DNA from: Candidatus Levybacteria bacterium RIFCSPHIGHO2_01_FULL_40_16
Lineage (GTDB): Bacteria > Patescibacteriota > Microgenomatia > Levybacterales > UBA12049
Assembly (NCBI GenBank): GCA_001783805.1
Contig: MFNS01000007.1
Location: 155,975 to 203,766, forward strand
Direction of reading: 5' to 3'
Length of the DNA stretch: 47,792 nucleotides
Positions 13,250 through 30,381 of the stretch are shown here, piece after piece. The number at the start of each line of letters is the position of its first letter. Position 1 is the stretch's first letter. The position numbers were made by a program, and so were the translations under genes. Below the pieces are notes generated by a model, which ran no database searches, was not told where the DNA came from, and saw nothing but the letters and a program-made list of their open reading frames with translations.

Positions 13250-13310
13250 GCTCCATATAGTTTGTCTTATTTTGTGTTTTATGTCAAGTTGAAGTAAAAT
13301 ACAAAGGCCT

Positions 13311-13384
13311 GTGCCTGTAGCTTAATGGATACCCGCCGACGCTGAAGCTTTGGCGGGCAGGGAGCATTCAGATTGCCTGGCACG
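13311..13384 (+). pseudogene. tRNA-Arg-like relic with a palindromic insertion in the D-arm
   Basis: gtgcctg-tagcttaatggata, a 30-nt hairpin insert, then gagca; anticodon and T arms missing; ends ggcac. Confidence 0.65.
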
Positions 13385-13388
13385 TTAA

Positions 13389-13461
13389 GTCCTTGTAGCT
13401 TAATGGATAGAGCATTGGGTTGCGAACCCAACGATTGGGAGTTCGAATCTCCCCGAGGACA
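13389..13461 (+). tRNA. tRNA-Arg (anticodon GCG)
   Basis: Acceptor gtccttg/cgaggac, anticodon arm ttggg-ttGCGaa-cccaa, T-loop gttcgaatc. Confidence 0.95.
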
Positions 13462-13496
13462 CATAAAGACTTTTACGTGCCGGAGCTGCGGGCATT

Positions 13497-15611: not shown

Positions 15612-15848
15612 TCAAATTAAATGTCTTCTTAGGAATGCTCTCCCCGATCCTGATTTTAAATATTTTTCAAATTTAAAAGCCGTATATCTATTTTTAAAAG
15701 CAAAATATCCTATTAAAATCACTGGCAATCTAGATTTAGTTGCAGAGATGTTTCCCTTATTATGTCTAGCCACTCTTTCTTTTAGATCATCCGTGCAACC
15801 AATATAAGTCTTCTTATCTGAACATATTAGCAAATAAACATAGTGCAT
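15612..15848 (-). CDS. Stand-alone GIY-YIG nuclease (78 aa)
   Basis: YVY-x9-YIG, TDDLKERVARHN, ATKSRLP, FEKYLKSGSGR. Confidence 0.92.
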   Translation of the reverse strand: MHYVYLLICSDKKTYIGCTDDLKERVARHNKGNISATKSRLPVILIGYFAFKNRYTAFKFEKYLKSGSGRAFLRRHLI

Positions 15849-16065: not shown

Positions 16066-16800
16066 GTGGGATTATTGGATTTTTTCTTTCCCAAACATTG
16101 TGTGAATTGCCGGAAAATAGGGGATTACATTTGCGCCAACTGTTTTTCTTTTATCTCCTTTGATGTTTCCATGATTTGTTTGGTCTGCAACAAGGGTTCA
16201 ATTGACGGGTTAACTCATCCGGGGTGCCGGGGAAAATATACGATTGACGGGGCGTTTGCGGGAGTTAGTTACAAGAGAACTATTAAAAAATTAATTTATA
16301 ATTTTAAATACAAGCCTTACCTCGCCGACTTGAGAAGCGTTTTAACAGACCTTTTTTGCGAATCGCTTATTCAGCAGGAACTTTTTCAAAAAGCTCTCGG
16401 ATTTTCACCGATTCTGGTGCCGATTCCGCTTTACTCAAAAAGATTGCGAAAAAGAGGTTATAATCACGCAAAGCTATTGACAGAAGGCTTATCAAAAAAA
16501 CTTAATCTTAAAATGGTTGAGGTCTTGCAAAGAACCAAAGAAACCAAGTCTCAATTCGGATTAACCCTCAAAGAAAGAAAAGAAAACATCAAGGACGCTT
16601 TTACTCTTGCTCCAAATATCCCCGCCTTCGCCAAGGCTTCCACCTTCGCAAATGCTTCGGCGGACAGGTCGGCGGGCAAGGCCAATATCCTCCTCGTCGA
16701 CGATATCTTAACCACCGGCTCAACTCTTTTGGAAGCGGCCAAAATGCTTAAGAAAAGCGGAGTGAAAAAAGTCTGGGGATTAACTCTGGCAAGAGATTAA
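16066..16800 (+). CDS. comF: ComF-family phosphoribosyltransferase-like competence protein
   Basis: Double Zn-ribbon N-terminus, RGYNHA, ERKENI, LLVDDILTTGSTL; in-frame palindrome insert before the PRT motif. Confidence 0.9.
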   Translation: MGLLDFFFPKHCVNCRKIGDYICANCFSFISFDVSMICLVCNKGSIDGLTHPGCRGKYTIDGAFAGVSYKRTIKKLIYNFKYKPYLADLRSVLTDLFCESLIQQELFQKALGFSPILVPIPLYSKRLRKRGYNHAKLLTEGLSKKLNLKMVEVLQRTKETKSQFGLTLKERKENIKDAFTLAPNIPAFAKASTFANASADRSAGKANILLVDDILTTGSTLLEAAKMLKKSGVKKVWGLTLARD

Positions 16801-16865
16801 TTTATTCGTTGCTAGACCAAGCTTGTAATCGTAAGGCAACTTGCTATAAAATAGGTGGGATCTTT

Positions 16866-17909
16866 ATGGTTTCATATAAATTGCTTTCAAATAGCATTCT
16901 CTTTTTGGATGATTTGGAAAAAGAAATTGAAAGGGCAAAATTAAGTATTGATTTGCAATTTTTTACCTTTGAAGCAGATACGGTTGGCAACCGTGTAGCC
17001 AAAGCCTTGTTTAGAGCAAAACTCCGGGGAGTAAAGATAAGATTTATCATTGATCATTTTATTGACCTTTTCCATAATGATTATTTTATTCATCGGCCAA
17101 GGTTAAATAGGGTCTTGCAGAGAATCATTACCGGCGAATGGAAAAATACAAAAAAGCTGCTTGAATTAATGGGAAAACAAGGCATTGAAATAAAACGCAC
17201 CAATCCCCTGGGCTTTTTACGAAGAAGAGCATTTCACAGAAATCATAAAAAAATTGTGATTATAGACAGGAAAGATCTTAAACAAGCGCTAGCATATATC
17301 GGGGGTTGTAATCTTTCGGAACATAACGCATCCTGGAATGATTTTATGGTAAAAATGAAAGGAGATATGGTTCCTGTTTTGCAAAATGATTTTAATGCGA
17401 CTTGGCGGGATAAAGATATTAATGGCAAAGTTGAATTTAGTGATGGCGTGGTCATGACTGATTCTTCCAAGGGAAAGCATGAAATTATGCCCTACGTCAT
17501 CAATTTAATTAATAATTCTAAAAAACGTATCGTAATAGAATCGCCGTACTTACGCGGCAAACATATTTGGGAAAGCTTGATTGAGGCTTCCCGGCATGGA
17601 GTTGATGCGCGCATCATTGTCCCGCTGCATAATAATCATAAAAGGTTAGGCGCTCCGACCGGCAGGTCTTTGAAAAAACTGATTGAGAATGGCGTCAGGG
17701 TTTACCGGTTTAAGGAAAATGGAGGAATGACGCATGCCAAAGCACTGTTGGTAGATGATATTACGATGTTTGGTTCAAGCAATCTAAGCGAATTCTTAGC
17801 CAAAAGACTTTGCGAAATAAACATTGCGTCCCATAACAAAAGCATGATAAAACAAATGCAAAAAAAACTTGACGAGGATATGAGAATGTCAATACTGCAG
17901 AATAAGTAA
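16866..17909 (+). CDS. Phospholipase D / cardiolipin-synthase-like protein
   Basis: Two HKD motifs (HKKIVIID, HAKALLVD) with GGCN and GSSN. Confidence 0.88.
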   Translation: MVSYKLLSNSILFLDDLEKEIERAKLSIDLQFFTFEADTVGNRVAKALFRAKLRGVKIRFIIDHFIDLFHNDYFIHRPRLNRVLQRIITGEWKNTKKLLELMGKQGIEIKRTNPLGFLRRRAFHRNHKKIVIIDRKDLKQALAYIGGCNLSEHNASWNDFMVKMKGDMVPVLQNDFNATWRDKDINGKVEFSDGVVMTDSSKGKHEIMPYVINLINNSKKRIVIESPYLRGKHIWESLIEASRHGVDARIIVPLHNNHKRLGAPTGRSLKKLIENGVRVYRFKENGGMTHAKALLVDDITMFGSSNLSEFLAKRLCEINIASHNKSMIKQMQKKLDEDMRMSILQNK

Positions 17910-18968: not shown

Positions 18969-19205
18969 TTATATTAATCTTTTATTTCTAAATGCAAAGC
19001 CTGAATTAGTTTTTAGATACTTTTCAAAATGCAAAGCTTTCAGTTTCGAAACAAAAGCTGAGTAGTGTACCAATTTAAGAGGTCTTAAATTTCTTGTTTG
19101 AGAAACTTCCCCCTTTTGATGAGTAGCTACACGTTGTTTCAAATCAGATGAGTAACCAATATATAAAGTTTTATCCCTTAATTGAAGAATATAAACATAA
19201 TACAT
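18969..19205 (-). CDS. Stand-alone GIY-YIG nuclease (78 aa)
   Basis: YVY-x9-YIG, SDLKQRVATHQ, FEKYLKTNSG; start taken at MYYVY, which has TGC-TACAAT 6 nt upstream. Confidence 0.92.
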   Translation of the reverse strand: MYYVYILQLRDKTLYIGYSSDLKQRVATHQKGEVSQTRNLRPLKLVHYSAFVSKLKALHFEKYLKTNSGFAFRNKRLI

Positions 19206-29490: not shown

Positions 29491-30156
29491 ATGGAAATAA
29501 TCCCCGGAATTTTGGAAAAGGATTGGACGAAAATTAAAAAAAAATTGGAAATTGTCAAACCTTTTGCAAAATCGGCTCACATAGATATTCTGGACGGAAA
29601 ATTTGCCCCCAACACCACTTTTTTAGACCCAACCCCGTTTGTTAAATATAGTCATTCTTCGACAGGCTCAGGATTGTTTTTGGAGCTGCACATGATGGTT
29701 GAAGAGCCAATTCAATATTTGAAACCTTTTTCGGATGTAGGATTTAAAAGATTTATCGGGCATGTTGAATGCCTCCGCCAGCCGGCGGATCAGGCTGAAT
29801 TTGTCACTAAAGCACGTGAATTGGGAGAAGTCGGGTTAGCAATTGACGGACAGACACCACTAACAAATCTTAAAGTTTCTTTAACCGATTTAGATTGCGT
29901 TTTGATAATGACCATCAAAGCCGGATTTTCCGGACAAAAATTTAATCCGGAGTATTTGAAAAAAGTTGAGATTCTTCGCTCCGCTCGGGATGACATCAAT
30001 ATAGAAGTGGATGGAGGAATTAATGATAAAACAATTACTCAGGCAATTCAGGCCGGCGCGGATAGATTTGTTGCAAACAGCTTTATCTTTAATTCACCAA
30101 ATCCTCAAGAACAATTTGATATATTAAAGAATATTGCCGAAACCCGCCTTCGTTAA
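29491..30156 (+). CDS. rpe: Ribulose-phosphate 3-epimerase
   Basis: HIDILDGKF, ELHMMV, IMTIKAGFSGQ, EVDGGI, GAD; start taken at MEIIP. Confidence 0.92.
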   Translation: MEIIPGILEKDWTKIKKKLEIVKPFAKSAHIDILDGKFAPNTTFLDPTPFVKYSHSSTGSGLFLELHMMVEEPIQYLKPFSDVGFKRFIGHVECLRQPADQAEFVTKARELGEVGLAIDGQTPLTNLKVSLTDLDCVLIMTIKAGFSGQKFNPEYLKKVEILRSARDDINIEVDGGINDKTITQAIQAGADRFVANSFIFNSPNPQEQFDILKNIAETRLR

Positions 30157-30177
30157 AACTTCGGCGGGCGAGGGGAG

Positions 30178-30381
30178 GTGAAGAAAATGGCGGAGGAAAA
30201 AATGATGTGCGCAGGACATGCGGGCAAAAAATACATGCTTTTCGGAGTCTTGGCAATAGTCTATGGAGTTATAAATTACATGATCAGTGTTATGGGCTGG
30301 CAGCCATACATGGCTTGGATTGCAGGAGGAGTTATTTTGCTTTTAGTTGCCTGGACAAAGGGGTCAATGAACAAAGCTTAA
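30178..30381 (+). CDS. Small two-TM hypothetical protein
   Basis: Two hydrophobic helices; GGAGG upstream, adjoining the repeat element (alternative ATG at 30187). Confidence 0.65.
   Translation: MKKMAEEKMMCAGHAGKKYMLFGVLAIVYGVINYMISVMGWQPYMAWIAGGVILLLVAWTKGSMNKA

Follow-up and report, generated by a model that had tools for sequence, protein, structure and literature searches.

How did 60 GC-rich bases come to lie in frame within comF of a Levybacteria genome? The gene belongs to a stretch of 47,792 nucleotides (nt) of Candidatus Levybacteria bacterium RIFCSPHIGHO2_01_FULL_40_16 (contig MFNS01000007.1, positions 155,975 to 203,766; hereafter the window), within a genome of 897,674 bases on 7 contigs with 37-44% GC. 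In the following, labels in G denote genomes (G000 is the Levybacteria genome under study), labels in C contigs (the window is C7:155975-203766), labels in P database homologues of ComF and labels in L fetched loci. An earlier note on this DNA, made from the sequence alone, had placed a palindromic insertion in frame before the LLVDD motif of ComF and had read it as an element hit by a sister copy of itself. The sequence is present as described; the GC-rich bases are located at window positions 16621-16680, where they comprise 20 codons. Our analysis makes it quite probable that the block consists of nested copies of a dispersed mobile element, similar to the repetitive extragenic palindromic (REP) sequences, in a tolerant loop of the protein. 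We lean, though only slightly, towards two successive hits in comF, and we infer their order.

The block differs from its surroundings both in composition, with a GC content of 0.62-0.67 (60-nt windows over 16620-16719) against about 0.3-0.45 across most of comF, and in its internal repetition. The adjacent 18-mers 16622-16639 and 16640-16657 are 83% alike, and two 10-mers located 12 nt apart (16657-16666 and 16669-16678) are 90% alike. Most simply, the sequence can be parsed as a complete 30-nt unit (16639-16668) within a second unit (16621-16638 plus 16669-16680; Table 1). This parse is equivalent to the nested sister copy proposed before, while the "TC duplication" that accompanied the proposal turned out to be a 2-nt ambiguity of the joint. 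A repeat containing AATATCC is found on both sides, at 16615 and 16684, that is 69 nt apart. Fuzzy matches tie the inner unit to other loci of the genome, and the 12-mer forming the 3' part of the outer unit occurs exactly at five other places. No Rfam family was detected at an E-value of at most 1 over positions 16400-16900.

Table 1. Features of the window discussed in the text (positions counted from the first base of the window).
Feature	Position	Strand	Basis
comF open reading frame, ComFC-type phosphoribosyltransferase fold, 244 amino acids, host of the insert	16066..16800	+	Open reading frame, Pfam, AlphaFold2, Foldseek
Left AATATCC unit, remnant of heptamer microsatellite, no target duplication	16615..16621	+	Repeat search; empty G004/G006 alleles
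Outer element, 5' part: 6-nt stem arm and most of loop, ends GCT	16621..16638	+	nhmmer match C7:172596-172614
Inner complete 30-nt element: arm, 14-nt loop, arm, 4-nt tail CAGG; joint shiftable by at most 2 nt	16639..16668	+	nhmmer E 2e-6; alignment with 33 other copies
Outer element, 3' part: last 2 loop bases, 6-nt arm complementary to 16621-16626, tail CAAG	16669..16680	+	Repeat search
Right AATATCC unit, same heptamer microsatellite	16684..16690	+	Repeat search; alleles of relatives
Family copy inside truncated tRNA-like 5' fragment	13332..13361	+	nhmmer E 3.3e-5 (C7:169306-169335)
Family copy directly ahead of Shine-Dalgarno-like GGGAGG and start codon	30143..30172	+	nhmmer E 6.8e-7 (C7:186117-186146)

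The frame-preserving 30-nt unit is a dispersed element. Two rounds of nhmmer over the whole genome, complemented by a fuzzy search, delivered 40 matches at an E-value of at most 0.1, which correspond to 37 loci, and a 16-nt core pattern has 17 exact matches in this genome compared to none for the reversed control pattern. Aligned with one another, the 34 best copies show a 6-nt arm (T or C, C, C, N, C, C), then a near-invariant 14-nt loop, the complementary arm and the tail CAAG. The tail reads CAAG or CAGG in most of these 34 copies, which were not selected for it; in the at least 122 copies that were collected by a longer pattern from many phyla (see below) CAAG is fixed. The element is not predominantly extragenic: 19 of the 37 loci are located inside open reading frames (ORFs) of at least 150 amino acids (aa), away from the ORF ends, and the reading frame of these coding genes is preserved. 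The host genes, named from their translations alone and not by a family library, include valS (twice), nusA, dnaK, rho, pheT, recR, fmt, dprA, rplD, comF and several glycosyltransferases, among others. Of the 19 intragenic copies, 18 run in the sense direction of their gene, even though two or three of the antisense frames are open as well; the copies are read as ..FAKAS..K (11 copies), ..LRQGFGGQA (4) and ..SLKLRRAS or ..SPRLR.. (3). The CC-rich arm comes first on the strand with positive local GC skew in 28 of 37 copies (17 of 19 intragenic, 11 of 18 intergenic); this agreement is carried by the intragenic copies and is inseparable from the sense bias.

Evidence for a hairpin comes from covariation among the copies and not from energy. 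In the at least 122 copies (53 distinct rows) 93.4% of the cells are paired, compared to 30-50% with slid partners, and none of 500 shuffles reached the covariation score, a type of score which related copies can inflate. Pair 1-26 is UA in 23 and CG in 22 of the 53 rows, two stem pairs change on both sides, and pair 4-23 occurs in four pair types and is unpaired in 19 rows. The left arm was outside the search pattern and its match to the right arm is therefore not built in. The palindrome that had been claimed stands as a covarying stem; as a thermodynamically strong one it does not, as will be discussed below.

The protein itself has the features of its class. ComF matches the Pfam family Pribosyltran with 29.8 bits (cut-off 26.3) and falls 0.6 bit short of the cut-off of 27 for DZR_2 (26.4 bits). 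Its AlphaFold2 model has a mean predicted local distance difference test score (pLDDT) of 86, with ComF of H. pylori (7p0h_A, E 7.7e-8) as top Foldseek match. An N-terminal zinc ribbon and a type-I phosphoribosyltransferase fold with the phosphoribosyl pyrophosphate (PRPP) motif are present, and LLVDDILTTGST is conserved in the alignment of the orthologues. The protein reads ...PNI PAFAKASTFANASADRSAGK ANILLVDD, where the insert occupies exactly codons 186-205, directly ahead of LLVDD. In the model, residues 189-204 have a pLDDT below 50 and form a coil between strands 179-181 and 207-215, whereas the remainder is confident, so that the insert is located in a loop, a point for which the earlier note had proposed a check by structure model. 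The low-pLDDT coil, together with the variation of loop length among relatives, points to a tolerated surface loop. The 20 extra residues make up a disordered loop and are, we infer, probably neutral.

Relatives were found to carry empty, single and double states of this loop. Among 19 aligned orthologues from genomes, the element is present in ComF of G000 and G005 only, and the segment is thus far from being common to all orthologues (17 lack it). Empty alleles occur in two of the six genomes of the same genus, G004 and G006, which have four tandem AATACTN heptamers and nothing else at this position. The AATATCC direct repeats, earlier regarded as the mark of the insertion, are hence older microsatellite units. 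The comF genes of G001 and G003 contain other GC-rich inserts between the second and the third heptamer; these belong to other dispersed repeat families, with 13 and 4 matches in five genus genomes and none for the controls. In G005 the same flanks enclose a 48-nt version; on our reading it can be aligned to the double of G000 by assuming losses of 6 and 9 nt, and it looks like a decayed double. The comF match of a further genome, G002:C34:613-993, is fragmented, with in-frame stops (one TGA, one TAG and one TAA); G002 is also the sole genome of the genus without a match to the element pattern and without a match to Y1_Tnp, a family considered below.

The same picture was obtained from 120 database homologues, of which 109 could be parsed and 84 have a loop of 12-13 aa. 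P0003 (76% identical) reads PNV-PAFAKASAGE-AN-ILLVDD and corresponds to exactly the outer copy alone, with the same junctions. The loop is empty in P0005, P0006 and P0007 (74-75% identical), P0002 (78%) contains another double and P0004 is of the G005 type. The DNA of the P0003 allele was not found in metagenome contigs. In four metagenome runs, of which only contigs were searched, one contig is identical to the window over 16537-16868. Among the sequencing runs listed as containing the sequence, none was of RNA. Across 80 metagenome ComF loci the loop contains at least eight different palindromic inserts, among them a CGTC-type pair and a 21-nt hairpin, and the loop before LLVDD is a general landing place. 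Two of these loci form a pair: L270 has the plain 21-nt hairpin, and in L271 the loop of this hairpin contains another GC-rich element of a different kind, which would represent nesting between different repeat families.

That the element targets itself, as proposed before, is seen in nusA. Here G000 and G003 contain a single element, and G001 contains the same element with a complete 30-nt copy in its loop after TTCGCT, which means that nesting happens in place. G004 retains only the right halves of a double, and decayed remnants are left in G005 and G006. Three nested doubles are present in our genome (comF, the internal one of valS and C1:391473-391517), and the at least 122 loci from many phyla include six nested cases, four after the loop GCT, i.e. 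at the same point as in comF, and two mid-loop; in six of the loci an inverted partner is located nearby. The valS gene (L145, G000:C7:141045-143240) has two family inserts. Its internal double (C7:141447-141494, residues ~583-602) is found only in G000, and four genus orthologues show heptamer arrays instead. The C-terminal double-like copy shares 33 identical bases with the internal one; at this position a single copy is found in G005 and no copy in G001 and G003. Further genes are likewise filled in part of the genus: recR in three of six genomes, fmt in two of the four where it was found, pheT in one of six and dprA in two of four. At recR, dprA and the internal valS site, the empty alleles consist of heptamer arrays; where the site is filled, the element lies between units of the array. 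Such microsatellite loops might be either preferred or merely tolerant.

The most serious rival to two hits is a single event, in which a ready-made 60-nt double entered comF as a unit and the single-copy allele arose by later loss of the inner copy. We consider this improbable, but it has real points in its favour. The three doubles in this genome share the joint and the kind of inner copy, in the four metagenome runs several contigs of different context agree with the comF double over 56-60 nt (92% alike, 4-5 differences) before they diverge, and the outer copy alone is seen at the DNA level in no genome of the genus, where G005 appears decayed from a double. However, the nusA copy was added in place to a resident single element, the doubles of comF and valS differ at 10 of 60 positions by our count and are no closer to each other than random singles, and P0003 is exactly the outer copy with the same junctions. 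Two successive insertions are, by a small margin, the preferred course of events.

The family is not restricted to the genus. The 16-nt core pattern was detected in 25 of 41 relatives (17 matches in G000, 13 in G005, 11 in G006, 9 in G003 and 8 in G015), with one match in one genome for the control, and a 21-nt pattern in 56 of 301 genomes drawn evenly from the phylum, with none for the control. In the species-genome collection, a 26-nt pattern is matched exactly at least 122 times, where about 0.02 matches would be expected by chance according to our own estimate (46-bit pattern, ~1.2e12 positions). The first 80 titles comprise many Patescibacteria, about ten Bradyrhizobium isolates and other Alphaproteobacteria, Gamma- and Deltaproteobacteria, Bdellovibrio, Verrucomicrobia/Kiritimatiellia, Planctomycetes, Bacteroidota, Acidobacteria, Chloroflexi, Elusimicrobia and Armatimonadetes, so that by genome label the pattern appears to span about ten phyla. 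Eight viral contigs also carry the element. The flanks of the cross-phylum copies range in GC content from 0.33 to 0.75 and are unrelated up to the ends of the element. The sense bias is weaker in this set, where 14 low-GC loci have sense-only and 6 antisense-only through-ORFs. In Bradyrhizobium and other Alphaproteobacteria (L034, L036, L045, L055, L058, L071, L077, L078, L080, L090, L100 and L137) the element is found between a palindrome of ~40 nt and a sequence ending ..CGCTCGCAATGACG. This end equals a CGTC-type end on the opposite strand, and the 30-nt element is thus contained in a composite of other REPs, with flanks that are alike between species.

The flanks were also used to look at target choice. 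The triplet before the element is GCT in 22 of 121 cross-phylum copies (1.9 expected) and NCT in 32 (6.1 expected), and the triplet after it is TCG in 23 (2.2 expected); within the genus, the preceding triplet is on our reading ACT or GCT at six of nine sites. The loop of the element contains GCT twice, and self-targeting is thereby explained without a special mechanism. No flanking repeat of 4 nt or more is found in 90 of the 121 copies. A flanking repeat of 6 nt or more occurs in nine, where shuffled pairs gave a mean of 1.15 and a maximum of 6. A target duplication is therefore absent as a rule, in comF too, and the element inserts without producing one.

Several observations weigh against nested copies of a mobile element. 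The hairpin is no more stable than shuffled sequences (z-scores of +0.35 to -0.64 for DNA folds of 66-nt and 32-nt stretches). A FastTree phylogeny of 30 ComF proteins, calculated after masking of the loop, does not unite the filled alleles in a single clade: P0002 is joined to P0007, an empty allele with 90% identity to it (support 0.97), and P0001 to P0014, which is likewise empty (0.94). ComF is a short protein (220 aa) and its tree is too weak to order events; if it is right, the site was hit or cleared repeatedly, or alleles were exchanged. The four metagenome runs contained no contig that lacks the insert and showed neither a joint nor a deletion there, but rare variants are lost in contigs. 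Of the 22 GCT-flanked copies, about 10 come from Bradyrhizobium and have like flanks, possibly representing one inherited site, and four are nested cases, so the target preference rests on fewer independent sites. Many genome labels are those of bins of metagenome-assembled genomes and possibly wrong; given the isolates and the range of flank GC, the cross-phylum spread is nevertheless real. Finally, the genes examined in this genome and in its relatives, RAYT-like (REP-associated tyrosine transposase) and GIY-YIG, revealed no mobilising enzyme. Six of 25 element-bearing relatives have no Y1_Tnp match, the RAYT-like gene of our genome is bracketed on both sides by a different perfect palindrome of 29 nt with about eight copies, mostly on contig C4, and the 30-nt element does not occur within ~600 nt of any of 20 RAYT-like loci from G001 and G003-G006.

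The RAYT-like protein, encoded on C4, is one of two Y1_Tnp matches in this genome. It has 234 aa and the motifs HIYNRG and PNHFH, and reaches 35.8 bits with the NCBIfam model REP_Tyr_transpos, which is under the cut-off of 80. The two 29-nt palindromes beside its gene (positions 1237-1265 and 2003-2031 of L143, G000:C4:17214-20483) are identical, and their arm shares a stretch of 11-12 nt, one indel apart, with the loop of the 30-nt element. Among the 41 relatives, which are not independent, both Y1_Tnp and the element are found in 19, the element only in 6, Y1_Tnp only in 7 and neither in 9. With no bracketing by the element at any of 21 loci and a weak co-occurrence, RAYT was rejected as a neighbouring mover. 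The GIY-YIG nucleases were examined as a second candidate. There are 12 matches in this genome and 2-13 in each of the 41 relatives, and two small genes flank comF, one at 15612-15848 (minus strand, 78 aa, Pfam GIY-YIG E 5.9e-14), 218 nt upstream of comF, and one at 18999-19205 (minus strand). The flanks (300 nt) of 11 small GIY-YIG genes share no perfect GC-rich hairpin, and none contains the stem-loop of the element; the sole family copy near a small GIY-YIG gene is 155 nt from C1:407475. This candidate was rejected as well, as there is no link through the flanks and the gene counts do not track the element counts (G009 and G034 have 11 genes and no element each).

The same genes bear on a second rival, namely that the hairpin serves the host in comF, in the mRNA or as a single-stranded DNA (ssDNA) signal such as a site for small, Ssn-like GIY-YIG nucleases. 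Hairpin repeats of ~30 nt are cut as ssDNA by SsnA, and the NTS-SsnA pair modulates transformation in Neisseria, according to Chenal et al. 2025 (PMC11893778). The nuclease gene upstream of comF, the number of such genes in the genome, the GIY-YIG matches that lie close to comF (within ~1.3 kb) in no fewer than 7 of 41 relatives (G000, G001, G005, G014, G016, G025 and G028) and the covarying stem would all fit this idea. We nevertheless judge it very improbable: most ComF orthologues do without the insert, the flanks and counts of the GIY-YIG genes speak against it as just described, and the motif is unlike the NTS/SRM consensus in PMC11893778. The GIY-YIG neighbourhood of comF may merit a separate study, given the SsnA work on transformation. 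A local origin, with GC-rich sequence of a variable loop duplicated in place or multiplied by slippage, is hardly credible, for although the loop is a microsatellite in the empty alleles, the same sharp-ended 30-mer occurs with unrelated flanks at 37 loci here and in many phyla, its A-A'-B'-B order is impossible by tandem duplication, and the inner copy bears its own tail ahead of the outer stem arm.

For the preferred reading, nested insertion of a mobile element, the following mechanism can be proposed. Each 30-nt copy would be non-coding by origin, with a 6-bp stem, a conserved 14-nt loop and the unpaired 4-nt tail CAAG, and the element would be a selfish repeat that spreads copy-from-copy. 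It would most likely move as ssDNA through an enzyme acting in trans, a suggestion for both mechanism and enzyme that draws on the likeness to known elements. Insertion would take place without target duplication, preferably directly 3' of GCT or of a trinucleotide resembling it, and with GCT twice in its own loop resident copies would become targets, giving rise to nested doubles. Thirty nucleotides equal ten codons, which are stop-free in the sense frames, so copies landing in tolerant surface loops survive. In comF, the landing place would have been a coding loop built of a heptamer microsatellite, just ahead of the strand with the PRPP motif.

Among known systems, IS200/IS605 elements have hairpin-bearing ends, insert 3' of a short specific sequence without target duplication and excise cleanly (for background see PMC6006769). 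Here, the unpaired end of the hairpin, the short and sequence-specific target, the missing duplication and the cleanly empty alleles suggest a similar single-strand transposition, although our element is a single geneless 30-nt hairpin and no TnpA is linked to it. Unlike miniature inverted-repeat transposable elements, the copies are not flanked by target-site duplications, and the flanking repeat in comF pre-exists. The comparison with the Rickettsia palindromic elements (RPE) drawn by the earlier note is fair as far as behaviour is concerned: both are palindromic repeats that interrupt housekeeping genes in frame and add peptide segments at the surface which the proteins tolerate. RPE-1, from the work of Ogata et al. 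in 2000, is reportedly ~100-150 nt long and confined to Rickettsia, whereas the unit described here has 30 nt and is cross-phylum.

There is also a close resemblance to REP/REPIN sequences. The survey by Di Nocera, De Gregorio and Rocco (2013; PMC3733652) describes REP families with RAYT, including intragenic GTAG- and CGTC-tagged REPs, and assigns RPE-4 and RPE-6 to the CGTC REPs, which have a different tag from CAAG. According to this survey, REPs are GC-rich imperfect palindromes of 20-40 nt in many dispersed copies (here 30 nt at 37 loci), with a conserved unpaired 4-nt end and sub-families with complementary stem changes. They occur as singles, inverted pairs and grouped copies, some of them intragenic and coding for 10-30 residues, and in GTAG-3 the stem and a small GC-flanked loop are separated by non-complementary trinucleotides, as in our element. 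However, the tail here is CAAG (CTTG on the other strand) and neither GTAG nor CGTC, and the stem lacks the A/T first pairs given there for the CGTC families. Further differences are the RAYT genes that are nowhere bracketed by the 30-nt element, the half of the copies that are intragenic in this genome, the nested doubles in direct orientation and the near-identical sequence over about ten phyla. The 28 REP families of PMC3733652 were compared without the consensus figures, so that identity with one of them is possible, e.g. with the Bradyrhizobium family GTAG-14, which has large GCGG/CCGC "loops"; the four supplementary files of that paper contain none of six DNA or peptide strings of the element. 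The NTS/SRM repeats, as described in PMC11893778, are likewise oriented hairpin repeats of ~30 nt, present in many phyla and in genomes rich in small GIY-YIG genes, and are linked to natural transformation, where the host gene here is comF. Their consensus as given there begins with CGTC and has an ATTCCC-type stem, unlike the element, which moreover does not flank GIY-YIG genes and shows no correlation with their number.

A search of the literature did not find the 14-15-mers of the element in print, nor any work joining palindromic elements, coding sequence and the Candidate Phyla Radiation; REP and Patescibacteria were joined only in an unrelated context. With the consensus figures of PMC3733652 uncompared, the element is REP/RPE-like and of a type not found in print. 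Going further, we tentatively suggest, as a possibility that is more doubtful than assured, an undescribed super-family of CAAG-tailed 30-nt single-strand hairpin elements, near letter-identical in about ten phyla, which would be moved in trans by neither a neighbouring RAYT nor a flanking GIY-YIG protein, and which would integrate just 3' of GCT, also where this triplet is part of its own loop or, as in Bradyrhizobium, of the loops of other REPs.

At this point we want to note some further copies and hairpins of the genome. The copy at 13332-13361 is located in the apparent D-arm of a tRNA-like fragment (window 13307-13388) that repeats the start of the tRNA-Arg(gcg) gene at 13389-13462; ARAGORN does not call this fragment. 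Three intergenic copies (window 30143-30190, C1:316763-316792 and C5:19527-19552) end a few bases ahead of a Shine-Dalgarno-like GGAGG or GGTGG and a start codon, and their hairpin would fall in the 5' leader of the downstream gene. The tails of these three are CGAG or TGAA, not CAAG. Apart from the family, the genome contains 338 other perfect GC-rich hairpins with a stem of at least 6, of which 13 are followed by CAAG or CAGG, compared to ~2.6 expected, and the insert family in comF of G001 likewise ends ..GGGCAAG. A CAAG-type tail may therefore unite several hairpin families.

Short hairpin repeats are usually viewed as intergenic, whereas the family described here writes segments of 10 or 20 residues into loops of essential proteins. 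In this minimal-genome bacterium from groundwater, ValRS, NusA, DnaK, Rho, PheT, RecR, Fmt, DprA and ComF are affected. For annotation, such inserts account for many odd segments of low complexity (FAKASxxK, LRQGFGGQA, SLKLRRAS) in proteins from metagenomes. A near-constant 30-mer over distant phyla without a linked transposase raises the question of its mover and of its constancy. Since empty, single and double states are visible among close relatives, gain, nesting and decay can be followed stepwise; comF contributes a complete allele series, accompanied by the in-place nesting event in nusA. If the super-family suggested above is real, a stop-free element of ten codons would, generally and to this day, supply new loop segments to the essential proteins of bacteria with small genomes.

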